A stretch of 35,596 bases of DNA from a virus. A program made the translations under genes and the position numbers. How positions within the stretch are numbered: position 1 is the first letter of the stretch; the number at the start of each line of letters is the position of its first letter. Shown here piece after piece: positions 8,601-29,196 of the stretch. The stretch is from positions 1 to 35,596 of IMG/VR virus record IMGVR_UViG_3300033508_000294; one strand, 5' to 3'. The notes under the pieces were generated by a model that ran no database searches, was not told the DNA's origin, and was given only the letters and a program-made list of their open reading frames with translations.

Positions 8601-9131
8601 TGTAGATTTAGACATAAACACTGTAATCATCTTATCACCCATATTTGTTAAGTGTAATAAATTGTTTGGATTTAATCCAGTTTCATCAACTAAATATTGA
8701 AATGAATCTTCATCTCTAACCCAAAAATCTTGTCTATTAAAGAATTTTTCATAGTCAGATTGATTAACTAAACTACTATTTTCATAAAGTGCTGATGTTG
8801 AAATAGATACATAATTTAATACATCTCTATTAGGAACTGTTGCTAACATATTAAGTGCCCAAATTGGACCAGTAGCTAACATTTTTTCACATGTTCTATG
8901 AAAATAAGAATCTTTATTTTCCAATTGTTTATCAATTGTTCCATAAATTCTTTCAAAATCCACCGTATTATCAACATATACTGGTCTATTATAAGGACCT
9001 TTTTTAGAAAATCCTGGTATTAAATTAATTAATACATTTTGTGCTGGAAGTTCAATGATAGAATTATCTATTTCATTAATATAGATACCTGGTCTTTTGT
9101 ATTTTCCTAAATCTTTTTCTTGTATTGGCAT
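5700..9131 (-). CDS. contractile tail sheath protein (gp18 family), unusually large
   Basis: The N-terminal KRPGIYINEIDNS has the sheath PGVYxxE motif. The C-terminal core SAGVQPWTIVAGVNMGRIPD...MGANPITFIRNVGYIINDENS resembles the conserved sheath domain (VNPIRSFPGRGIVVWGARTL-like). It lies next to a gp19-like tube gene. The central region is Thr/Ser/Asn/Gly-rich and looks like inserted domains. Confidence 0.8.
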   Translation of the reverse strand: MPIQEKDLGKYKRPGIYINEIDNSIIELPAQNVLINLIPGFSKKGPYNRPVYVDNTVDFERIYGTIDKQLENKDSYFHRTCEKMLATGPIWALNMLATVPNRDVLNYVSISTSALYENSSLVNQSDYEKFFNRQDFWVRDEDSFQYLVDETGLNPNNLLHLTNMGDKMITVFMSKSTTTGFDVTASSWYGGDTLVPGYIDPKSFISDYLVSVLILAGDWTNYKSLSTDTTWSKYFTLNGLIIDNMQDFVNESGVVVVGSYDVSLIPNFKDLNNRDMYIESVLNNNTDKTSLFCTYNQDLLLDNDYLSDLIDLVGNTIVGLDINNINFLSYDQAIKETVDYPEVSLDSPNNVFGTANFSTPNGATKNWNNWTQTGITLSFVSGSTSSYTGGTITYQGGNYIINGVLTGITSGTTTVNTLANGYQRMDVIYLDKDGIHVMAGNTSLYPGTLSLKEITFTNTNTIILSTLELRNTAGIINGTLSDITAPSSTPDIFITSGVTGTDNYLKIEFLGTSGSTLLKNNEYPKLRSYKVWYEIVTNLEANKGVIINTLGDLKTEIKAITSLELGSTRNAQIFIYLDTPSDYFSSTTDVLLYYVDKQFKLVAGLIETTDTIITTSDLSQPNIVAKYSDFYIDFYNGIINTNDVISGTTTTMTMYIDTLGVLRVKLSNSYTVTNGLSILTDIGNWRQTVEIESYEGSDENNVVVIKVNKDRYSEIIRGSYLEAYVSADYLAPDGSEYIKGNTVARKLVRITNVKNDPADSTMKILYTDGPVKISYASGTTEMYTTSYPAVYSYATHLKGMGLKPFIIHQDSIPNGTESRLNTILNVIAKNTSMYKGLINKNKISWRYLVDSFGLGLTESSKQQYVDLCGDKLNCLGFINMPSAKSFKKSSNPSFLNTDGSLSIKYIKEGANQELNPDFLYSFGTGAGRSTTGYFFPYVKVTNNGVASFVPPAAYVASAYMRKFTTSSAGVQPWTIVAGVNMGRIPDISGTELDFSNDDLDNFSDMGANPITFIRNVGYIINDENSAQVFPVSSLSYLHSREVLIELENQLYDMLLRYQWKFNTPTIRSEIKYRADKICQNFVEQEGLYVYKNIIDSTNNTPYIIDLQGGVLDTYIEIVKGMGWIVNNITIEKTGAINSTGFQQ

Positions 9132-9291: not shown

Positions 9292-9855
9292 ATGAAAGAA
9301 TCTACTTTAAAATTAGTTAATAAGACAATGTTTAATTATTTAAGTCTTATTGGAATATGGGATGAGAAAAATATGAATCAAGACAATCCTATTATACTAT
9401 ATTTTATGACTAATACAATGTTAAATCGACCTGATTTATTGAATCCTTCTGAACAAGGATTATCAGTTATTAAATTAGAAGAAGAAGGTAATCAATTTAC
9501 AAATGTAAATATTACAAATCAGTTTTTTCATCAAATTGTTAGAGAATTTTATAATGTTTATGGGAAAATTGATGAAATTGTATCCCACCAAGATGAAAGA
9601 GTAAAAGAATCACTTATTCAGTTCATTGGAAGTGAACAAAAATTTAATGACTATATAACTGATATAAAAGAAGAATATAAAAATTCTTTCTATGAACTTC
9701 TAAGAAATTTTAATTCACCAAACCCAAATTATAATGAAATAAAAATAAAAGTCTTAAATGATAAGATGATGGAATGTGCTTATAAGGAAGATTATAAAGA
9801 AGCTGCAATATTAAGAGATAAAATTAATTTACTAAAAGAAAAAGGGAAGATTTAA
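9292..9855 (+). CDS. hypothetical protein with C-terminal UVR (UvrB/UvrC-type) domain
   Basis: The C-terminal MMECAYKEDYKEAAILRDKINLLKEK matches the UVR motif (..FE.AA.LRD.I..L). Confidence 0.5.
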   Translation: MKESTLKLVNKTMFNYLSLIGIWDEKNMNQDNPIILYFMTNTMLNRPDLLNPSEQGLSVIKLEEEGNQFTNVNITNQFFHQIVREFYNVYGKIDEIVSHQDERVKESLIQFIGSEQKFNDYITDIKEEYKNSFYELLRNFNSPNPNYNEIKIKVLNDKMMECAYKEDYKEAAILRDKINLLKEKGKI

Positions 9856-9871
9856 ATCTTCCCTTTTTTTT
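9841..9871. terminator. bidirectional rho-independent terminator
   Basis: The palindrome gggaagattt/aaatcttccc is followed by T8. It sits between convergent genes and overlaps both stop codons. Confidence 0.75.
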
Positions 9872-11303
9872 AATCTTCATCATCAATAATAAAATCACCT
9901 GTTGTATCATCATACATTAATCCATAAGTTTTATCTGGATTATGGTCTTTACTATCCATCCAATCTATTAAATCACCTGTATATAAATCTCTATTTTTAC
10001 AAATTGTTCTCATTTCACCCCAAGTAATACGAAGTTCTCCCCTATCATTTTCATATGCATAAGCTATTGTTAATACATCTGTTAAAAAACTTGCCATATA
10101 TTCACCATTATTAAAGGTATCACCATATTTTTCATCTTCAACTTCTTCATAATCTGCTTCTTCAACTTCTTCATTCCATTCTGGAAAATCTGCATCTGTA
10201 TATTTATTACCATTTTTATTTTTTGTGGTATAATTATAATATGTTTTTAATGTTTGTTCAATATCATATACTGAAGTATATATATCTTTACCTATTTTTA
10301 TTGTACCATCTGAATAAATAATAACTGTTGCTTTTTTATTATCATCAAAATAATCAACATATATCATAGGTTCATCAGGATAAAGATCAATATCATCACA
10401 ATACATATTCAATGCATCTTGCATTAAATAATTTACTTCTGAATATATTTCATATAATTCTTCATCAGTTAAATCATTTTTAGATTTATTTCTTGATTTC
10501 TTTTTTGATTTTTTATTTCTTCTACTTGATGGATAATTATATTCATAGGTTTCAACCTTTGTATGATCTCTTACTGTTGGTAATTCTTCCCATTTTACGT
10601 TTATAATTGTATCTGCTAATAATTCTAAATATGTTATATTTTGAACTTCTTCTGAACTATGTTCATGGAAATATCCAACTGATAAATTAGTACATTCCGG
10701 TATAAGTCTTACAAAATTAGCAGAATCAGTAAATATACCAAATGGATCTTGACTAAAACTTTTACGATGACCCCAATTAGTTAAATTGAGTTGAGCTGCT
10801 AAAGCATCTGCAAATTCACCTGAACAACAAGTACTACCTTTTTGTTTTGTAATAACTGAACCATAATCCCTTCTATCAAATGCAATACATCTTTTATATT
10901 TTGTAAATCTTTCTGGTTCTTTTTTAACTATACCACTTGAACCTACACTACCCCTTTCTTCACCAATGAAAAAATAATAAAGTCCCGGAACATTATTTTC
11001 AATTAAATTCATAAGTAATACTACACCTGCTTTATCATCTGCACCAAGTATTGTATTTCCACTTGAACCAACACCAGTATCACCACTTTTAGTTAGAAAA
11101 ATATCATGTACTACTTTTTCTTTTTTCATAGCAGCAGTATCTAAATGACAACAAAACATAGTTTCACTTTCACCTATTTCCATATACCAATTACCTATTG
11201 AATCTTTTATTAATTCTTTTGGTAATCTATCTAATAATTGATCTTCTTCACCTAATATATAAGTGTAATCAGTTAAATCTAAAAATTTTTGTTGTATGTT
11301 CAT
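9870..11303 (-). CDS. M20/M28-family zinc metallopeptidase-like protein with long acidic C-terminal extension
   Basis: CHLDTA (HxD), GADDKAG (DDK metal ligand), GEERGSVGS (EE catalytic/metal pair) and GYFHEHS follow the order of M20/M28/M42 peptidase motifs. The C-terminal ~200 aa is D/E/Y-rich. Confidence 0.55.
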   Translation of the reverse strand: MNIQQKFLDLTDYTYILGEEDQLLDRLPKELIKDSIGNWYMEIGESETMFCCHLDTAAMKKEKVVHDIFLTKSGDTGVGSSGNTILGADDKAGVVLLMNLIENNVPGLYYFFIGEERGSVGSSGIVKKEPERFTKYKRCIAFDRRDYGSVITKQKGSTCCSGEFADALAAQLNLTNWGHRKSFSQDPFGIFTDSANFVRLIPECTNLSVGYFHEHSSEEVQNITYLELLADTIINVKWEELPTVRDHTKVETYEYNYPSSRRNKKSKKKSRNKSKNDLTDEELYEIYSEVNYLMQDALNMYCDDIDLYPDEPMIYVDYFDDNKKATVIIYSDGTIKIGKDIYTSVYDIEQTLKTYYNYTTKNKNGNKYTDADFPEWNEEVEEADYEEVEDEKYGDTFNNGEYMASFLTDVLTIAYAYENDRGELRITWGEMRTICKNRDLYTGDLIDWMDSKDHNPDKTYGLMYDDTTGDFIIDDED

Positions 11304-21806: not shown

Positions 21807-22769
21807 ATGAATGTATTAAGTCTTTTTGATGGAATTAGTTGTGGACAAATTGCTTTAAATAGAGCAGGAATAAAAATAGATAATTATTTTTCATCAGAAA
21901 TTGATAAACATTCAATAAATGTTACACAGAATAATTACCCTAATACAATTCAATTAGGTGATGTTACTTTATTAAAAGGAAATACATTACCTAAAATTGA
22001 TTTACTTATTGGTGGTTCACCATGTCAAGGGTTCAGTTTTGCTGGTAAACAACTTAACTTTGAAGATCCAAGAAGTAAATTATTCTTTGAATATGTAAGA
22101 TTAAAAAATGAAACAAATCCAACATATTTTTTACTTGAAAATGTTATAATGAAAAAAGAATATCAAGATGTAATATCTTCATATTTAGGTGTTCAACCAA
22201 TTGAGATAAATAGTGCATTAGTTTCAGCACAACATAGAAGAAGATTATACTGGACTAATATTCCAGATGTAAAACAACCAGAAGATAAGAAATTAACAGT
22301 TATGTCTATAATTGAAGATAATATAGGTGGAACTAAAGTTATCTTTGATGAAAATGGTATTTGTAGGTTAAAGGCAAAGAATAAGAAGAATATAATATTA
22401 GAATTTGAAGTACCACCACCTTATTCAATATATGAAGCAAGAACAGATATGGCAAAAATTGCAAGAAGGGAATCAAGAAAATTATATGGAATAGATACTA
22501 ATCCAAGGGGTGTTGATTACAAGGAATATAGGATAAATAAAAAAGATAAATGTAATTGTATTCTTACTTCAAGGACTGAATTAGATTGTATAATAGATAG
22601 TCAATATAATTATAGGCCACTTACTATAATTGAAGCAGAAAGACTACAAACAGTGCCCTATAATTATACAAACTATGCCAGTGATAATCAAAGATGGAAA
22701 ATGTTAGGAAATGGATGGACAGTTGATGTCATATCACATATTTTTTCACATATAAAAAATAATATATAA
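21807..22769 (+). CDS. DNA (cytosine-5)-methyltransferase
   Basis: Motif I LFDGISCG (FxGxG), motif IV GGSPCQGFS (PCQ), motif VI ENV, motif VIII QHRRR and motif X GNGWTV are all present in the canonical order. Confidence 0.85.
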   Translation: MNVLSLFDGISCGQIALNRAGIKIDNYFSSEIDKHSINVTQNNYPNTIQLGDVTLLKGNTLPKIDLLIGGSPCQGFSFAGKQLNFEDPRSKLFFEYVRLKNETNPTYFLLENVIMKKEYQDVISSYLGVQPIEINSALVSAQHRRRLYWTNIPDVKQPEDKKLTVMSIIEDNIGGTKVIFDENGICRLKAKNKKNIILEFEVPPPYSIYEARTDMAKIARRESRKLYGIDTNPRGVDYKEYRINKKDKCNCILTSRTELDCIIDSQYNYRPLTIIEAERLQTVPYNYTNYASDNQRWKMLGNGWTVDVISHIFSHIKNNI

Positions 22770-22773
22770 AATT

Positions 22774-23499
22774 ATGATAAATACTTATGAAGAATATGTT
22801 AATTTGATTAAAGAAGGATTAATAATAACACATCGAATATCAAAATATAAACATCTGATAGAAAATTATTTAGATAGAAATAATATTAAATTCGAAATTG
22901 ATGTTAATAGTACTAATGATACTTTTAAATTAACATTATATGAAAAAGAATTAAATTCATATGAATCAATACTATCTTTGATAAATAATATTGGGTATTT
23001 CCCTTCTTCGATAAAAGTTTTTAGAAATATTAAAGATAGTAACAATGAAAAATATCAAAATTTTAAATATAACTTTGATACAATTAAAGATGAAATAAAT
23101 AATGAAAAATTTATTAAATTAATTTTGTCTTGTGAAGCATTGTTTGATTATGAAGTTTTAAATTTACCATCTATTATTTACCATATATATCCATCAAATT
23201 ATATAAATAAAATTTTAAATCTTGGTCTTATTCCAAAATCAAGAATGAGAAAATCATATCATCCAGAAAGATGTTATTTTACTTATAGTATAATTGATGC
23301 AAATAATTTAATAAAAGAATTTCAACTTAATGATATTAAAGATAACATAGGTCCAATAAACTATTCAATTTTAAAAATTGATTCTTCTGATATGAAAAAT
23401 AAAACAAATGATAAAGATATTAAATTTTTTATTGATCCTAACTCTGTTGGATTTTATACTTACGATAATATCAATCCTTCTTTTATAATTTATCCTTAA
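22774..23499 (+). CDS. hypothetical protein immediately downstream of the MTase, with CTS-like leader (MINTYEEYVNLIKE|G)
   Basis: It starts 4 nt after the MTase stop. The N-terminus resembles the T4 IPIII CTS. There are no recognisable nuclease motifs. Confidence 0.45.
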   Translation: MINTYEEYVNLIKEGLIITHRISKYKHLIENYLDRNNIKFEIDVNSTNDTFKLTLYEKELNSYESILSLINNIGYFPSSIKVFRNIKDSNNEKYQNFKYNFDTIKDEINNEKFIKLILSCEALFDYEVLNLPSIIYHIYPSNYINKILNLGLIPKSRMRKSYHPERCYFTYSIIDANNLIKEFQLNDIKDNIGPINYSILKIDSSDMKNKTNDKDIKFFIDPNSVGFYTYDNINPSFIIYP

Positions 23500-23884
23500 T
23501 CTTCTTTAATTTTAAAGACCTTTGAATTTCTGTTCCTAACATACTTTTTAACATTTCAGATTTTCTTTGAAATGAATCAATTTCTTCTTTATTGTCAAAA
23601 TACTTTTTTAATATTATAATTTTACTAATTATCTTAAAATTCCACCATTTAAAATTTAAAGTATGGATATTCTTATAACCCGAATAAATATTCATTGATT
23701 CTGAAAATCCTTCCTTCATAGTAACAGAATTACTAACAAATCTAGTTTTAGTTTCTTTATTAATATATGGACTAGCATAATAGGAATTACCTTCAATAAA
23801 TTCCCAATTTTCAGGATGATTTAAAGCATTCTTTAACAAATCAATATAAACTTTTTCTATACTTCTGTCTACTTGTGTTTTCAT
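23483..23884 (-). CDS. small protein, K-L-K-K-I-K C-tail family (paralog A)
   Basis: It carries SPYINKETK and WWNFK motifs. The C-terminus is ...RSLKLKKIKDKL. Confidence 0.5.
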   Translation of the reverse strand: MKTQVDRSIEKVYIDLLKNALNHPENWEFIEGNSYYASPYINKETKTRFVSNSVTMKEGFSESMNIYSGYKNIHTLNFKWWNFKIISKIIILKKYFDNKEEIDSFQRKSEMLKSMLGTEIQRSLKLKKIKDKL

Positions 23885-24263
23885 AATTTTTTCCTTATTT
23901 TAGTTACTTTTAAAAATCTATCCATATTATAACCTAATGCATCTTTTAATTCATTGTTAAGTTTTTCATCTTCATTTTTTTTCTATCCATTATAGTATCT
24001 AAATACATTGAATGTATTAATATACTAGTTTTAAAATCCCACCAAGAAATTTTTAATTCATAAATTCGATAATCATTTTTATATATGAATACTTCAAAAT
24101 TATTCATATCGTGTTCTATTTTAAATTGGATTTTAGTTTCTTTATTAATATATGGACTAGTAAAAGTATAAACAACATCTGAAGATTTCCATTTTTCAGG
24201 TGTTAATAACATTTCTTTAAGTAATTCCAAATATACCTTTTTTAATTCCTTATCTACTTTCAT
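23885..24263 (-). pseudogene. frameshifted member of the same family (paralog B); conserved C-tail encoded in the -1 frame after an A8 run
   Basis: The ORF 23946-24263 carries SPYINKETK and WWDFK motifs but ends early (...KMKMKNLTMN). The sequence downstream, in another frame, encodes ...DALGYNMDRFLKVTKIRKKL*, matching the family C-tail. The frame switch coincides with the T8 (coding-strand A8) run at about 23979-23988. Confidence 0.5.
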
Positions 24264-24673
24264 ATTTTTTTCTTATTTAACTTTTTCATTATTCTAATTA
24301 ATTTTATTGACCTCATTATTAATTTTTCTTTAGTATTAAGGTCAATAAACATTTGTGTTAAATTACAATTTTTTGAATAATCTGTTAACCAACCATTAAT
24401 ACTAAATGGTACATGTCTTATTTGATTATCTTTTAATATTGCATTGATTAATTTCTTTTGTGGTTTAAAAAATGTACCAACATTATAACTTGGTAAATGT
24501 GTTTTAGTTAATGGTTCAGTATCACTAATATGTTGTTTTACAAAATTTAATCTCAATTCAAGATTACTGATATTAAGAATTAATTTAGCTTGTATTAATG
24601 TCTTATCATTCCCAAAGGAATAAAAACTTTCATTAGTACCAATAATATAATACTTATTATCAATATTTTTCAT
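24260..24673 (-). CDS. small protein with related basic C-tail (RSIKLIRIMKKLNKKKI)
   Basis: Overlapping start and stop codons place it in the same operon-like string. Confidence 0.45.
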   Translation of the reverse strand: MKNIDNKYYIIGTNESFYSFGNDKTLIQAKLILNISNLELRLNFVKQHISDTEPLTKTHLPSYNVGTFFKPQKKLINAILKDNQIRHVPFSINGWLTDYSKNCNLTQMFIDLNTKEKLIMRSIKLIRIMKKLNKKKI

Positions 24674-25083
24674 TCTAATTTCTTTTTAATTTTAGATAAT
24701 TTTAAAGATCTATCCAAATTTGCACCCAATGACTTTCTCAATATTTCATCAGTATCTCTTGCTTTTTTCCATTTATCTTTGACATCCATAAATCTCTTTA
24801 ATCTTTTTAATAATTTTCTTGTTTTAAAATCCCAAAAAGATAGTTCTAATGTATAAATAAGACTACTCTTGTTATAAATATCAATCTGTGAACTATCAAA
24901 ATCACCTAATGATGTACAGGTTTTAAAAAATATTTCACTATCATCACTAATACAAGGACTTTTATATTCCTTATATGAATATTGTAAATTAGTCCATTTT
25001 TCTTGGGTTTCTAATAAACCTCTTAAGATAGTTAAATAAATATCTTTAGTTTCTTTGTCAATATCTAATCTTACCTTATCCAT
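24670..25083 (-). CDS. small protein, K-L-K-K-I-K C-tail family (paralog C)
   Basis: It carries SFWDFK. The C-terminus is ...RSLKLSKIKKKLE. Confidence 0.5.
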   Translation of the reverse strand: MDKVRLDIDKETKDIYLTILRGLLETQEKWTNLQYSYKEYKSPCISDDSEIFFKTCTSLGDFDSSQIDIYNKSSLIYTLELSFWDFKTRKLLKRLKRFMDVKDKWKKARDTDEILRKSLGANLDRSLKLSKIKKKLE

Positions 25084-25084
25084 A

Positions 25085-25489
25085 TTATTTATCTTTATTA
25101 GGTGTTAATGTTCTTTTAATTCTACTCATTAATTTTTGTAATTTATTTCCTCTACCAGCACTTACTCTGAATGTAGTTGGGTCTTTAAAAAAATTTTCAG
25201 ATTCTTTAAGTGTATCACGCCAAAAATCAGTGTAACCTGAGAAGGAATCTATTAGTATAAGCATAAATATATTTTCCCTTAATGCAGTTCTACATAAGGT
25301 TTGTAATTTTTCCAATGTCCACCTAGTATCCTTATATAAATATATGTAAATACTCTGTTCTCTAATAAAAAAGAAAATCATTTCTTCTTCATTTTTTACT
25401 TCATACATATAGTATTCCAATTCATCAAGAATTCTGGTATTGGATAAATCATCTATATTTCCATATAGTTGTAAAAGGTAATGTGTCAT
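25085..25489 (-). CDS. hypothetical protein (first gene of the paralog string)
   Basis: A 134-aa ORF ending ...KLQKLMSRIKRTLTPNKDK. A Bacteroidetes-type promoter lies upstream. Confidence 0.45.
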   Translation of the reverse strand: MTHYLLQLYGNIDDLSNTRILDELEYYMYEVKNEEEMIFFFIREQSIYIYLYKDTRWTLEKLQTLCRTALRENIFMLILIDSFSGYTDFWRDTLKESENFFKDPTTFRVSAGRGNKLQKLMSRIKRTLTPNKDK

Positions 25490-25507
25490 AATTTTTATTT
25501 TAATTTA

Positions 25508-25539
25508 CAAATATACAAATAATTTTAAATAAATACAAA
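25508..25539 (-). promoter_or_regulatory. Bacteroidetes sigma-A-type promoter (minus strand TTTG-N20-TATATTTG)
   Basis: caaatata at 25508-25515 lies 18 nt upstream of the ATG at 25489, and caaa at 25536-25539 lies 20 nt further. Confidence 0.5.
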
Positions 25540-25586
25540 CTTTATCTGAAAAAATGTTTATATAATATTAAATCAATAAAAATAAA

Positions 25587-25823
25587 ATGACAGTAAGCAT
25601 TAGAAATACAAGAGAAGAAAATTTCAAGAAAGAAATTGTCAATTTTACAGATGAACATTATAAATTAGCAAATGATATATATAATCAATTTGGTAATTAT
25701 GGACCATTATTAGTTAGTCAAGAAGATGATACATTATGTTTTGTAGTGAATTTAGCAACCAATAGAGTAGATAAAGAAATAGGAACAAATTTATATAAAA
25801 TAAAAATAATTAAAATAAAATGA
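25587..25823 (+). CDS. hypothetical protein
   Basis: A 78-aa ORF whose stop overlaps the dUTPase ATG (ATGA). Confidence 0.4.
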
Positions 25824-26422
25824 AGAAACAAGTAGTAAAAGTATTTAATAAGGGTACAAATGATTTACCTAATTATTCAACAGAATTTGCAGCAGGATTT
25901 GATATCAGAGCTGATTTAAGTAGGATTAATCAATTCAGTGATTTAATGGGTAATGATTCATTATCACTTACAATACCAGAAGATGGTAGTCCTAAAGTAA
26001 TTACATTATTTCCTAAAGGTGGTAGAGTATTAATTCCAACTGGATTACACATATCTATACCAGATAATTATGAATTACAAATTAGACCAAGAAGCGGTCT
26101 TGCATTGAAAAATGGTATAACTATTATGAATAGTCCAGGTACAATTGATTGTTTTTCAGAAGATTCATCTATTAAATCAATTAATGGTGATATTAATATA
26201 AAAGACTTAAAAATTAATGATGTTGTTTTATCAGTAAATGAAAATTTAGAAATTGAAAAAGATATTATAACTGCTATTATTGATAAAGGTGTGTTAGAAA
26301 TTAATATTATTGAAACAGAAGATGGTATATTAGAAATTACTGATAATACTTTAGTTTACACTGATAGAGGATTAATAAAAGCAATTGAATTAAAAGAAAA
26401 TGATAATATTTTACATTTTTGA
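25820..26422 (+). CDS. dut: dUTPase N-terminal extein (motifs I-III) fused to N-terminal half of a split intein
   Basis: The dUTPase motifs are AAGFDI (I), [12 protein letters not shown] (II) and NSPGTID (start of III). Cys then begins an intein-like block, CFSEDSSI (block A-like), and the 90-aa segment ends at a stop codon. Confidence 0.8.
26150..26419 (+). other. N-intein half (about 90 aa) of a naturally split intein
   Basis: The half starts at Cys111 straight after the GTID of dUTPase motif III. Block A reads [10 protein letters not shown]. Confidence 0.7.
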
Positions 26423-26474
26423 TATTTTCCACCTCTATAATCTTTATATATAATAGAAAATAATTATAGGAGAA

Positions 26475-27362
26475 ATGATAGAATGTAAAATATGTGGACA
26501 TCAAGTAAAATATAGATTAATTGAACATATTCAAAAAACACATAAATTAGATATAGATTTTTATAAAGAAAATTTTGGTGATGTTATATCTAAAGAATAT
26601 AAAGAAAAAGTTAGTGAAAAATCTAAAGAAAAATGGCAAGAAGAAGAATATAGGGAAAAAACTAAAAAATCAAGAGAATGGATATATAATGATATAGAAC
26701 TTCAACAAAAAAGAACAAAATCTATTTTAAAATATTATTCTGATGGTGGGAAAGTTTGGAATGATGGATTAACAAAAAATGATGATGTAAGATTAAAATC
26801 AATAGGTGAAAAAAATAAAGAACATTTAACAGGAAGAACCAAAGAAAATTATGAATATCTTAAAATACATAGTGATTTAATGAAAGATAGGTGGGAAGAT
26901 AGTAATATATTAAAAGAATGGAAATCAATACAAAATAATGAATACAAAAAAGATATATGGAAAAGAAAAATATCAGAAACAATATCAACTAAAATATTAA
27001 ATGGTGAATTAAATACATTGAGTTCTTTTAAAAGTGGTTGGTATATAAATAGTAATAATAAGTATTGGTATTGTTCAAAATTAGAAGAAGAATCTATGAT
27101 ATTATTTGATAAATATAAATTAGATTGGACAAATAAACACGGTATTAGAATAGAATATTTTTTAAATGAAAAAAGACATTATTATATACCAGATTTTTTA
27201 ATAAAAATTAAAAATATTCATTATATTATTGAAATGAAAGGGTGTGATTGGGATGGTGATACTAAAATTAAAAAAGAATATGCAGAAAAAAAATTAAAAA
27301 ATTATAATATTTTTTATAATTTAAATGATTTAGAAAATTTTATAAACAAAATAATAAACTAA
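26475..27362 (+). CDS. free-standing endonuclease nested between intein halves: C2H2-like Zn finger + Vsr/PD-(D/E)xK-like nuclease domain
   Basis: The N-terminal CKICGHQVKYRLIEHIQKTH is a C-x2-C...H-x4-H finger. The C-terminal YYIPDFLIKIKNIHYIIEMKGCDWDGD resembles the Vsr core (PDIVF...IFVHGCFWHGH). It has its own AGGAGA Shine-Dalgarno sequence 6 nt upstream. Confidence 0.65.
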   Translation: MIECKICGHQVKYRLIEHIQKTHKLDIDFYKENFGDVISKEYKEKVSEKSKEKWQEEEYREKTKKSREWIYNDIELQQKRTKSILKYYSDGGKVWNDGLTKNDDVRLKSIGEKNKEHLTGRTKENYEYLKIHSDLMKDRWEDSNILKEWKSIQNNEYKKDIWKRKISETISTKILNGELNTLSSFKSGWYINSNNKYWYCSKLEEESMILFDKYKLDWTNKHGIRIEYFLNEKRHYYIPDFLIKIKNIHYIIEMKGCDWDGDTKIKKEYAEKKLKNYNIFYNLNDLENFINKIIN

Positions 27363-27367
27363 TAAAA

Positions 27368-27475
27368 ATGAAAAAGACAAAAATTTTATCAATAAAAAGA
27401 GAAAAGAAACAAACCTATGATATTACAGTTAATAATAATCATAATTTCTTTTGTAATAATCACTTAATACATAAC
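27368..27475 (+). other. C-intein half (36 aa)
   Basis: MKKTKILSIKREKKQTYDITVNNNHNFFCNNHLIHN resembles the DnaE C-intein (..VYDIGVERDHNFALKNGFIASN). Confidence 0.7.
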
Positions 27476-27676
27476 TGTGATTATAGGGGTGAAGTTGGAT
27501 TAATTATAGTTAATACAGACCCTAATAAATTATTTGAAATAAGACATGGTGATAGATTAGGACAAGGTGTTTTGAATCAAGTAGAACAAATAGAATGGGA
27601 AAAAGTTTATAGAGTAGAAGATTTAGGTGAAACAGTAAGAGGTGAAGGTGGTTTTGGTCATACAGGTAAAAACTAA
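27368..27676 (+). CDS. dut: C-terminal half of split intein (36 aa) fused to dUTPase C-terminal extein (motifs III-V)
   Basis: TYDITVNNNHNFFCNNHLIHN matches intein blocks F/G and ends in HN. The +1 Cys is followed by DYRGEVGL (rest of motif III), RLGQGV (IV) and RGEGGFGHTG (V). Splicing would give the contiguous motif GTID-CDYRGE. Confidence 0.8.
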   Translation: MKKTKILSIKREKKQTYDITVNNNHNFFCNNHLIHNCDYRGEVGLIIVNTDPNKLFEIRHGDRLGQGVLNQVEQIEWEKVYRVEDLGETVRGEGGFGHTGKN

Positions 27677-27688
27677 AAAATTAAAGAT

Positions 27689-27985
27689 ATGATAATATTT
27701 AGAAATAAATCAAAAAATACACCAGTAGTATTACATCATACAGTACCACAACATACAAGTAGTCCAATAATTACAAATACACCACATAGTGCAACAACAC
27801 TTAATATCAATGGACAACCTATGTATGCAAGTGCTGTTACATATAGTTGGTTTGATCCAGAAGAAGCATTATTAAAAAGGAAAAAAGAATTGATGGATGA
27901 ATTTGAACAGAATCCAGAATTATTCAGTGAAATAATGGTAGAATTAAGACAAAGGAAGATTAAAAAATTAAAAGAAAATATCTAA
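27689..27985 (+). CDS. hypothetical protein
   Basis: A 98-aa ORF with a basic C-tail (RQRKIKKLKENI). Confidence 0.4.
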   Translation: MIIFRNKSKNTPVVLHHTVPQHTSSPIITNTPHSATTLNINGQPMYASAVTYSWFDPEEALLKRKKELMDEFEQNPELFSEIMVELRQRKIKKLKENI

Positions 27986-28200
27986 TGGGATTATTTGTAT
28001 CATATTGTAAAAGATGTAATAGTGCACAAAATTGGTTTATTCATTTAAAAGATGGAATCAAAAAATGTCAAAATTGTGGACATATAAACACAGAAAAAGA
28101 TATGTATGATTCTTTGTGGAATGAACATTATTGGGATGATTATAGATTATTGGAAAGTAGAAAAGAAAAAATCTTAAAATTAAAAAAGTCAATTCATTAG
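27985..28200 (+). CDS. small zinc-ribbon protein
   Basis: CKRC...CQNCGH forms two CxxC pairs. The C-terminus is ...KILKLKKSIH. Confidence 0.45.
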   Translation: MGLFVSYCKRCNSAQNWFIHLKDGIKKCQNCGHINTEKDMYDSLWNEHYWDDYRLLESRKEKILKLKKSIH

Positions 28201-28213
28201 AATTGACTTTTTT
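28182..28213. terminator. bidirectional rho-independent terminator
   Basis: An A-run, the hairpin agtcaattc-atta-gaattgact, then T6. It overlaps the stop at 28200. Confidence 0.75.
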
Positions 28214-29144
28214 AATTTTCCCAATTTGGGTAATAATTTTGAGTAGAAGATAATTTTATTTTCTTTGCGTCTTCTAAATTCATTATATTTTTGAAATCAT
28301 TTCTTATTATATTAGTTTTAGCCAAATCTAATAATTTTATAAATTTTTCCATTTCATCATCATTAGTATTGTATTGATTATTTAATTTATCCATATAAAT
28401 AATACCTGATTTATTAAGTTTTTTATTAATATTTCTCATAAAATCTTGTATTTGTTGATCATTTAATTCTAAAGTATTATTATTAATTCTTCTTTGAATT
28501 GATCTTCTATTAAAAAATGATATAGGAGAATGTTGATATTGTTCCCAGATAGTAATAAATTGATATAATAAATTTTTATCAGTAATTAGATTCTCTACTT
28601 TAAAATGTTTTATTAAAAGTATATAAGATAATATTTCTACTCTTTTATTTTTATCATATTTTTTAAATGAATGAATAAATGCACCCATTTCTCTATCATC
28701 TGCAAAATATAACATAGTTTCTAATAATCCAATTTTATTAGAAATTTTTTGGAAGAAATTTTTAATTTGATTTAATACTGTATTATTTTCATAATCAATT
28801 AATAATATATTCCTATCTATTGTTGATTGTAATACATGTATTAATTCATGATTTAATGTTGCTTTACTTGGTGCCTTTAAATAAATTCCTACACTATTAG
28901 AGTATTTTAAATATGCTGTTTTATTAATAAATTTAGGACTAATACCAATTACTATGAAAACATATGGCCAATCTTTTAAAAAAGGAAACTCTAATGATAA
29001 CTCTTTAATGCTAAAATTATATCTTTTTAATTTATTATCATTCATATATTCTATAATATATGTTGATAATTTAATAATATCTTTATTTATTCCAGTATCA
29101 GTAGAAGATTTTTTTTCTAATAAAAATTCATTAAATGTTTTCAT
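28212..29144 (-). CDS. HExxH zinc metalloprotease-like protein with CTS-like leader (start revised to Met15 of the track ORF)
   Basis: It contains NHELIHVLQ (HExxH). The track ORF start at 29186 lies inside the terminator hairpin of the upstream gene. The internal Met at 29144 gives MKTFNEFLLE|KK, matching the leader family. Confidence 0.55.
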   Translation of the reverse strand: MKTFNEFLLEKKSSTDTGINKDIIKLSTYIIEYMNDNKLKRYNFSIKELSLEFPFLKDWPYVFIVIGISPKFINKTAYLKYSNSVGIYLKAPSKATLNHELIHVLQSTIDRNILLIDYENNTVLNQIKNFFQKISNKIGLLETMLYFADDREMGAFIHSFKKYDKNKRVEILSYILLIKHFKVENLITDKNLLYQFITIWEQYQHSPISFFNRRSIQRRINNNTLELNDQQIQDFMRNINKKLNKSGIIYMDKLNNQYNTNDDEMEKFIKLLDLAKTNIIRNDFKNIMNLEDAKKIKLSSTQNYYPNWEN

Positions 29145-29154
29145 AGTCTTATAT

Positions 29155-29196
29155 ATAAAAAAAATAAGATGATTATTTCTAATCATCTTATTTTTA
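29155..29196. terminator. rho-independent terminator
   Basis: An A-run, the hairpin aagatgatta-tttc-taatcatctt, then T5. It lies just downstream of the stop at 29213. Confidence 0.65.

Follow-up and report, generated by a model that had tools for sequence, protein, structure and literature searches.

A putative mobile split-intein cassette in the trimeric dUTPase gene of a huge phage

The trimeric dUTPase gene carried by IMG/VR virus record IMGVR_UViG_3300033508_000294 (positions 1 to 35,596; the whole 35,596-nt stretch is called the window here) is broken within the codons of its motif III by an insert of 1326 bp. The insert encodes the two halves of a class-1 split intein and, between them, a hairpin and a free-standing nuclease gene. 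We consider it most likely, with a probability of about 0.82, that this is a mobile cassette of a huge phage, the intein halves of which would splice in trans and the nuclease of which would drive homing. That a dUTPase gene is split around intein halves is confirmed, and lies far beyond chance.

The fractured dUTPase gene and its uninterrupted counterpart

The locus consists of three co-directional open reading frames (ORFs A, B and C; Table 1), which together span nt 25820–27676. The start codon of ORF A overlaps the stop of an upstream 78-aa ORF (ATGA). A preliminary description, made from the sequence alone, had interpreted the locus as a fractured gene with a split intein and a free-standing endonuclease gene. 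The ORFs, coordinates and sequence strings that it listed are all present in the window, and its interpretation is upheld by the abutting exteins, a syntenic intein-less allele, the conserved layout and the invariant junction residues.

Table 1. Features of the split dUTPase locus in window coordinates.
Feature	Position	Strand	Description
ORF A	25820–26422	+	200 aa; dUTPase part to ...NSPGTID, then 90-aa CFSEDSS...ILHF; TGA stop at 26420
N-extein	25820–26149	+	dUTPase residues 1–110; motifs I, II and first part of motif III, ending GTID
IntN (N-intein half)	26150–26422	+	90 aa, CFSEDSS...ILHF, plus TGA; matches to Hint and phrog_16259
Hairpin, 5′ untranslated region of nuclease gene	26430–26474	+	5′ arm 26430–26441; AT-rich loop 26442–26462; 3′ arm 26463–26474
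ORF B	26475–27362	+	295 aa; putative homing endonuclease gene; AGGAGA upstream; follows a 52-nt spacer
C2H2 zinc finger	26484–26543	+	C4, C7, H18, H23; alignment of 27 homologues
PD-(D/E)xK domain	27027–27359	+	C-terminal, about aa 185–295; after helical NUMOD3-like middle region
Catalytic candidates	27084–27086; 27192–27194; 27231–27233; 27237–27239	+	E204; D240; E253; K255 (alignment)
ORF C	27368–27676	+	102 aa; 36-aa MKKTKILS...NHLIHN, then CDYRGE...GFGHTGKN
IntC (C-intein half)	27368–27475	+	36 aa, MKKTKILSIKREKKQTYDITVNNNHNFFCNNHLIHN; block F (D, H) and block G (HN); PF14890, E=1.7e-4
C-extein	27476–27676	+	+1 Cys, DYRGE (rest of motif III), motif IV GDRLGQ, motif V RGEGGFGHTG; 66 aa plus stop

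In profile searches, ORF A covers positions 45–89 of the 150-position NCBIfam dUTPase model (E=3e-21) and ORF C positions 88–149 (E=5e-17), so the two halves of the enzyme abut. Pfam and PHROGs profiles likewise place both ORFs as parts of a dUTPase. Joining residues 1–110 of ORF A to residues 37–102 of ORF C in silico gives a protein of 176 aa (110 + 66), rather than the product of about 146 aa suggested previously. It carries all five motifs of the trimeric dUTPases (PF00692) in order (AGFDIRA, RPRSGLA, GTID-CDYRGE, GDRLGQ and RGEGGFGHTG), and aligns to solved dUTPases with no gap across the junction (8y1q, E=1.4e-32). The canonical sequence at this point is PGTID-A/S-DYRGEV. Splicing had been expected to rebuild motif III exactly; GTID-C-DYRGE would indeed be restored, but intein-less alleles have Ser at the site of the +1 Cys of the window, so that this residue represents a Ser-to-Cys replacement.

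The sequence between the two exteins has the form of an intein. The fused halves (126 aa) match the Spl DnaX mini-intein (7cfv) over their whole length (E=2.5e-8), and the comparison with split inteins that had been proposed earlier also gave matches to gp41-1 (6qaz) and NrdJ-1 (8ubs), both of which are split inteins from fractured genes (PMC2677866). The enzyme is thus covered in full by two ORFs of the same direction, which result from one break in its gene; IntN ends the upstream ORF, IntC begins the downstream one, and a nuclease ORF with its own start and stop lies between them in another frame.

The borders of the insert were located by comparison with L009, a 53-kb contig that is syntenic with the window. 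Upstream is again the 78-aa ORF and downstream are the genes found in the window, but the dUTPase between them (P0068, 175 aa) is single and uninterrupted; the window N-extein shows 92.7% protein identity to it. By blastn, window nt 25581–26125 and 27488–27986 align to L009 nt 9762–10303 and 10340–10841. The difference in gap length is 1326 bp and corresponds to nt 26150–27475, from the Cys1 codon through the terminal Asn codon, so that the insert can be delimited exactly. The intein-less site (L009 nt 10280–10370) reads ...CCCGGGACACTAGAT/TCTGACTACTATGGG..., where the slash marks the insertion point. Nucleotide differences between window and L009 bunch at this site, with 10 of the 24 nt immediately upstream differing, compared to about 7% over the upstream 545 bp. 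These mismatches, which were not sorted into synonymous and nonsynonymous changes, would fit co-conversion or target-site immunity.

Two other explanations bear on this arrangement. One is that the split is an artefact, either a sequencing or assembly error or a recoded TGA that hides a contiguous intein with an internal endonuclease domain. The IntN stop of the window is a TGA, and some large gut phages are known to recode stop codons (Yutin et al. 2021, PMC7886860), but a TAA follows six codons further on, and ORF B, which has a start and a hairpin of its own, does not share the frame of ORFs A and C. The N-half ends with TAA in most relatives, and the same layout recurs in assemblies from many unrelated samples. 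An artefact is therefore barely credible, and the sequencing error at nt 26420 that the preliminary description had named as a potential refutation is excluded by the downstream TAA, the change of frame and the related loci. The other explanation is that the insert is a group I intron that contains a nuclease ORF and is spliced out of the RNA. Such introns, with homing endonuclease genes, are common in the nucleotide-metabolism genes of phages, but a permissive scan of nt 25500–28000 with the Rfam covariance models gave no match to any family even at E<=1. Moreover, the stretches on either side of the nuclease gene can be recognised as intein halves that share the reading frame of the exteins, and the insert begins at Cys1 and ends at the terminal Asn, leaving the intron a negligible likelihood.

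The nuclease gene and its expression signals

Residues C4, C7, H23, S201, E204, P239-D240-F241, E253 and K255 of the ORF B protein are invariant in 27 homologues, and H18 is nearly so. The C-terminal domain shows the E...PD...(D/E)xK motif on an alpha-beta-beta-beta-alpha-beta core. Among these 27 close homologues, Pfam matches were obtained to Ros/MucR (13/27), TnsA-like_N (10/27 at E<=0.01) and phage endonuclease I (7/27), while a profile search of PDB sequences gave weak matches to Bax1 and T7 endonuclease I. The nuclease is nearest to TnsA, VRR-NUC, Bax1, Hjc and T7 endonuclease I, and has a canonical and conserved E..PD..ExK site on a fold like that of TnsA.

It had been described before as a C2H2-like zinc finger joined to a Vsr/PD-(D/E)xK-like nuclease. 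The zinc finger and the PD-(D/E)xK assignment hold; placement among the Vsr-like enzymes does not. Members of the EDxHD family use E, D, H and D as catalytic residues (E170, D196, H213 and D222 in I-Bth0305I), with His as the general base and no catalytic Lys (PMC3239194). The alignment of the 27 homologues shows no invariant His in the nuclease domain, and sequence and profile searches found no match to Vsr or 3R3P. Membership of the Vsr/EDxHD family was rejected on these grounds, and the term 'Vsr-like' could apply to the restriction-endonuclease fold at most, because the residues that define EDxHD enzymes are absent.

A profile search covering 1.84 billion representatives returned 29 full-length relatives at E<1e-30, followed by a sharp drop; these represent the dUTPase-associated subfamily. 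The wider family comprises 919 cluster representatives at E<1e-10 and 5403 at E<1e-3. Sampled distant relatives score above the TnsA_N gathering threshold (up to 55.6 bits), and carry NUMOD3 modules, Ros/MucR fingers or BED fingers. NUMOD3 is a hallmark module of phage homing endonucleases. Of the distant relatives looked up (L042–L044), some are on short contigs, and those with readable context are free-standing, for example adjoining an IMPDH gene in L043.

A second free-standing gene is found in L029 (nt 3554–4450), just downstream of the fractured dUTPase. It encodes CxxC zinc-ribbon repeats and a PD-(D/E)xK domain that is 32% identical to the window nuclease over 118 aa. Joining of a homologous nuclease domain to zinc-ribbon repeats indicates domain shuffling within the nuclease family.

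The spacer 5′ of the nuclease gene folds as a hairpin in eight diverged loci, with the Shine-Dalgarno sequence lying within the 3′ arm (AGGAG at nt 26468–26472 in the window). Across the eight loci, 8 of the 12 pairs show compensatory changes, and 89% of the hairpin cells are paired, compared to 39–55% when the partner is slid by 1–3 columns; none of 500 shuffles reached the observed value. Such a hairpin would hold translation of the nuclease low on read-through transcripts. At its other end, the nuclease gene overlaps the IntC ORF by 14–44 nt in 8 of 10 related loci, while in the window and L002 the two are separated by 5 nt. In the fractured genes of Dassa et al., hairpins were present in 15 of 16 loci and the endonuclease gene overlapped the IntC ORF by 6–69 bp (PMC2677866).

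The intein halves and the prediction of splicing

Cys1, the block A nucleophile, is present in 27/27 non-redundant N-inteins. Blocks F and G are recognisable in the C-half (YDITVNNNHNFF...LIHN/C), with Asp and His in block F, a penultimate His, the terminal Asn and the +1 Cys, and the HN/C junction is kept in all 110 clusters of short C-halves. Variants of the C-intein are rare: that of L040 (nt 3001–3108) ends in GN instead of HN, and that of L004 (nt 3881–3988) lacks the block-F His (NNNF); both would be useful for structure-function work. With Asp at block F position 4 and Cys at position 1, the intein does not belong to class 3. The halves are of opposite charge. IntN has a net charge of −12 (family mean −11) and IntC of +5 (+5.3 within its first 15 residues). 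Opposite charges on the two halves are the known electrostatic design of natural split inteins, and the acidic/basic complementarity seen here matches that of the natural split inteins in Dassa et al. 2009 (PMC2677866).

Several points weigh against the cassette as proposed. Both protein splicing and DNA cleavage are inferred from sequence. The TxxH motif of class 1 inteins is kept only in its Thr: block B of the window IntN reads T-D-N-T where 7cfv has TGNH, and no conserved His column exists across the 27 non-redundant N-inteins, the position being occupied by Thr or Ser in the main type and by Lys in the CVPKGT type. The preliminary description, which had listed a lack of similarity to blocks A, B, F and G among its potential refutations, overlooked the missing block-B His. 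This His is essential in many inteins, and only 'a very small subset' lacks it, such as the Tko CDC21-1 orthologues (PMC6333167). Because it is absent from the whole dUTPase intein family, the first splicing step must be unconventional, and here lies the chief uncertainty as to function. The nuclease of the window remains below every Pfam gathering score (18.1 bits against a cut-off of 26.5; PF08722/PF05367). Its hairpin is weaker than those of its relatives, with 10 pairs, one mismatch and a single-sequence z of −1.5. The AGGAGA Shine-Dalgarno sequence noted before the 295-aa ORF is present, but only 2 nt from the ATG, and none is visible in the window for ORF C; the expression levels of all three ORFs are therefore uncertain. 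Spacing between Shine-Dalgarno and ATG of the nuclease gene is 0–2 nt in the window, L002 and L003, compared to 7–9 nt in the other loci examined (L004, L006, L029, L030 and L040), and the short spacing may reduce translation of the nuclease still further. That the hairpin loop holds a phage promoter is speculative, as a degenerate loop motif gave 5 matches in the window where 5.9 were expected. The loop contains a sigma-70-like TTTCCA-17-TATAAT, but such matches are overall fewer than in shuffled sequences, nor was a T4-type TATAAATA element established.

If the halves did not splice, they might serve only as a dimerisation module that joins the two dUTPase fragments non-covalently, in the way that fragments of the Aeromonas phage Aeh1 NrdA, the gene of which is split by mobE, are said to assemble into a functional enzyme. 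The family-wide absence of the block-B His would be consistent with this, and charge complementarity would also serve simple association. However, association alone would not require Cys1, the terminal Asn or the +1 Cys, which serve only the chemistry and are invariant. The intein directly follows the catalytic Asp and separates it from the rest of motif III, so that an unexcised Hint domain of 126 aa would also lie within the active site of the dUTPase. A few natural inteins do splice without the His (PMC6333167). Dimerisation without splicing is, on balance, quite unlikely.

Trans-splicing by the dUTPase split intein is plausible, given that the invariant Cys1 and HN/C serve splicing chemistry rather than association; purifying selection on both halves is further, likewise indirect, evidence. 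The two dUTPase fragments would be translated separately, and acidic IntN and basic IntC would associate and ligate ...GTID to CDYRGE..., giving the 176-aa enzyme with Cys in place of the usual Ser. The N-S acyl shift would proceed by a compensatory route, with Thr, Ser or Lys at the position of the block-B His.

Distribution, related systems and significance

The three-ORF layout was found in about 20 independently assembled loci. Homologues of the nuclease fall into 59 clusters, and at the seven loci looked up (six distinct contexts) the gene always lies between a dUTPase N-half and C-half. These are a second assembly of the window locus, L002 (75% nuclease identity), L003 (62%, on a 616-kb contig), L004/L005 (50%, on a 364-kb contig), L006 (43%) and L007/L008 (33%). 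Neighbouring genes differ completely between them, so that the cassette occurs in different phage backbones, with flanks that include RNR/PolB, PRTase and glycosyltransferase genes. A scan of IMG/VR with ORF C found 31 further loci, about 12 of which have the cassette layout, and more than 100 clusters (90% identity) of C-halves of about 100 aa were recovered with the same query.

Public data hold every stage of the element, from the empty site through to the split intein without nuclease. Empty sites are seen in L009, L011, L012 and L033–L039. A contiguous mini-intein of 126 aa without nuclease is present in P0092 (L010) and P0122, the former running straight through the split point (...NIIHF-VKLTKIKSIKK...). 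Split inteins with an intact nuclease gene occur in the window, L002–L008, L023–L030 and L040. In L013 and L014, from two independent samples, the nuclease gene is broken into three frames, and in L017–L022, from six samples, it is gone. The latter loci show a clean 812-bp deletion relative to L013, with a 107-nt spacer that still codes for the last residues of the L013 nuclease. The order of these stages is inferred, and the contiguous mini-intein could be ancestral or re-fused.

The proposed course of events follows the life cycle of decay after fixation proposed by Dassa et al. 2009 (PMC2677866). During co-infection the nuclease would cut intein-less dUTPase alleles at or near the motif III codons, and repair would copy the whole cassette into them (homing). 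After fixation the nuclease gene would decay and then be deleted, leaving a split intein without nuclease.

A second intein allele (CVVKGT...) occupies the same site in L031, L032 and L041, with a different, Cys-rich ORF in the gap. In L031, where this ORF encodes 201 aa, a 720-aa IMPDH/GuaB-like gene with a large contiguous intein (nt 3331–5493; ...GCFGVGSRVLMSNG...VHNSGCL...) lies directly downstream of the dUTPase.

Selection on the parts of the cassette was estimated from the ratio of nonsynonymous to synonymous changes (dN/dS) by the method of Nei and Gojobori, which gives rough values in AT-rich DNA. Between the window and its relatives, dN/dS was 0.24–0.55 for IntN, 0.01–0.2 for IntC, 0.2–0.3 for the C-extein and 0.37–0.5 for the nuclease, so that the nuclease as well as both intein halves evolves under purifying selection. 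In the lineage with a decayed or lost nuclease gene the values were 0.05–0.09 for IntN and 0–0.03 for IntC, both below that of the C-extein (0.10–0.23). The intein halves are under strong purifying selection after loss of the nuclease gene.

These values bear on the possibility that the dUTPase is dead, disrupted by a selfish nuclease gene, with intein halves and exteins as decaying remnants. The enzyme is dispensable in some phages, and the nuclease gene itself decays in some lineages (L013/L014), but dN/dS stays far under 1 in the exteins and in IntN and IntC alike, with the lowest values after loss of the nuclease gene. In addition, the five motifs are intact, the arrangement is kept over more than 100 protein clusters, and the frameshifted halves that would be expected in most relatives were not seen. 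A dead dUTPase is very improbable.

The distribution also bears on whether ORF B is, or still is, a homing endonuclease for the dUTPase site; it might instead be a domesticated nuclease or DNA-binding regulator, or have another target. Members of the wider family of 919 representatives do stand beside other genes, and a Ros/MucR-type zinc finger is typical of regulators. Against this, all members of the tight subfamily with readable context lie between dUTPase halves, in different backbones and down to 33% identity, and their catalytic residues are invariant. A selfish homing gene would be expected to decay and disappear once fixed, as the nuclease gene has done in some lineages, and the NUMOD3 modules of the relatives are typical of homing endonucleases. 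We regard a role other than homing as unlikely.

The host of the cassette is a huge phage, as judged by the kinship of its tail sheath and by the occurrence of cassette relatives on contigs of 213–616 kb. The G+C content of the window is 24.8%, and its genes include those for DNA methyltransferases, a peptidase and a 1143-aa tail sheath (nt 5700–9131, − strand). The sheath shares 49% identity with its counterpart in the uncultured phage LR756501 (735 kb); phages of 634–642 kb and Lak phages also have related sheaths. Searches of the window by tblastn with IntN, IntC, the nuclease, a second nuclease type and a gp41-1 sequence found no other inteins, nuclease copies or fractured genes.

Other differences from L009 are seen near the locus. 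A 241-aa ORF (nt 22774–23499, +) without PHROG match lies just after a DNA methyltransferase gene (nt 21807–22769) and is missing from L009, where its flanks are contiguous; it may be another mobile insertion. Tandem small ORFs of 133, 105, 137, 137 and 134 aa occupy nt 23483–25489 (− strand). Window nt 23488–23900 and 24131–24722 align to overlapping parts of L009 (nt 7885–8295 and 8142–8739), and about 730 bp (nt 24723–25454) have no counterpart, so the size of this array differs between the two genomes. Downstream, a 71-aa ORF (nt 27985–28200, +) carries two CxxC pairs resembling a zinc ribbon, and nt 27987–28174 have no counterpart in L009. A perfect 20-bp hairpin followed by a T-run (nt 28176–28219, − strand) resembles a terminator, and overlaps the end of this ORF and the 3′ end of a convergent gene (nt 28212–29186).

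Among previously described systems, the closest are the fractured genes of Dassa, London, Stoddard, Schueler-Furman and Pietrokovski (2009; PMC2677866), which comprise gp41, NrdJ, IMPDH, NrdA, DnaE, ligase and terminase loci. They share the order of parts (N-part of an enzyme with IntN, free-standing endonuclease gene with upstream hairpin, IntC with C-part), the split at the canonical point of endonuclease insertion, the sizes of IntN (about 90 aa) and IntC (about 36 aa), a phage or metagenome source and, as host protein, an enzyme of nucleotide metabolism. An overlap of nuclease gene and IntC ORF is also seen in most of the related loci, whereas the window has a gap. The dUTPase is not mentioned among their host proteins (PMC2677866), and their endonucleases are of the GIY-YIG or Vsr-like types, in contrast to the canonical PD-(D/E)xK domain and C2H2 zinc finger found here. 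The gp41-1 and NrdJ-1 inteins also retain the block-B His that the dUTPase intein lacks.

Other systems share single features. The cyanobacterial DnaE split intein has an acidic IntN, a basic 36-aa IntC, Cys1 and Cys+1, and L017–L022 have reached the same state of a split intein without endonuclease; its halves, however, lie far apart in the genome and the block-B His is present, whereas the dUTPase halves are adjacent. In the nrdA gene of phage Aeh1, the intruding mobE is a free-standing HNH endonuclease gene, and the fragments reportedly assemble non-covalently with no intein. As discussed in PMC2677866, a nucleotide-metabolism gene is split there too by a free-standing endonuclease gene, and a hairpin sequesters the ribosome-binding site; the lack of an intein sets it apart. 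The Tko CDC21-1 orthologues are class-1-type inteins with an N-terminal Cys and no His at block B position 10 (PMC6333167), and both they and the dUTPase intein are presumed to splice through a compensatory residue. They are contiguous, archaeal, inserted in CDC21/MCM and preceded by Leu at −1, while the dUTPase intein is naturally split, of phage origin, preceded by Asp at −1 and has Thr, Ser or Lys at the His position.

Among homing endonucleases, I-Ssp6803I (PDB 2OST) is a characterised PD-(D/E)xK enzyme, small, encoded by an intron of a cyanobacterial tRNA gene and without separate DNA-binding modules. The ORF B protein is instead free-standing, comprises 295 aa and has helical modules in addition to its zinc finger; no similarity between the two sequences was detected. 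The EDxHD/Vsr-like homing endonucleases (I-Bth0305I, PDB 3R3P; PMC3239194) are set apart by their catalytic residues, which are missing in ORF B.

The fractured-gene class of mechanism has been known since 2009; dUTPase as the host protein, the third type of nuclease and the lack of the block-B His were not found described. Full-text literature searches, with InBase outside their scope, yielded no report of a dUTPase intein. In 50,697 GenBank phage records, tblastn with the nuclease gave no match, IntN matches were limited to inteins in helicase, RNR and terminase genes, and the C-half query matched dUTPases over the extein only. The nearest GenBank relatives of IntN lie at the ends of 'DNA helicase' ORFs followed by a 'hypothetical protein' in the Salmonella phage S16 group (e.g., NC_020416, nt 105310–105600) and in disrupted RNR alpha genes of the Campylobacter phages CPt10 and CP20. 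Here, too, genes of cultured phages have probably been fractured or split by inteins.

Split inteins are widely used as protein-ligation tools, and the fastest of them (gp41-1, NrdJ-1 and IMPDH-1) come from fractured genes. With its halves of 90 and 36 aa, Cys1 and Cys+1, the dUTPase intein offers a ready test of how the first splicing step is catalysed without the block-B His. The ORF B protein would extend the short list of structural families of homing endonucleases by a canonical PD-(D/E)xK enzyme of TnsA-like type, and genome engineers might take an interest in its modular DNA-binding part, which combines a zinc finger with NUMOD3-like helices. There is also a lesson for annotation, as the half-genes are labelled 'dUTPase' or are unlabelled in public metagenome annotations.

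A bolder proposal, to which we give a little less than an even chance, is that the dUTPase split intein is an efficient natural trans-splicer that carries out the N-S acyl shift without the block-B His by a compensatory mechanism undescribed for split inteins, and that the nuclease gene beside it is the first known member of a large, new family of homing endonucleases (the 919 representatives at E<1e-10), which combine a C2H2 or zinc-ribbon module for DNA binding, NUMOD3-like helices and a TnsA-like, canonical PD-(D/E)xK domain. If so, the origin of split inteins could be followed in one host gene as a natural time series, from the empty site to the nuclease-less split intein. Because all stages occur in one gene, the 2009 model of split-intein origin can be tested by phylogenetics, and the stages show a split intein persisting under strong selection after its nuclease gene has been lost.

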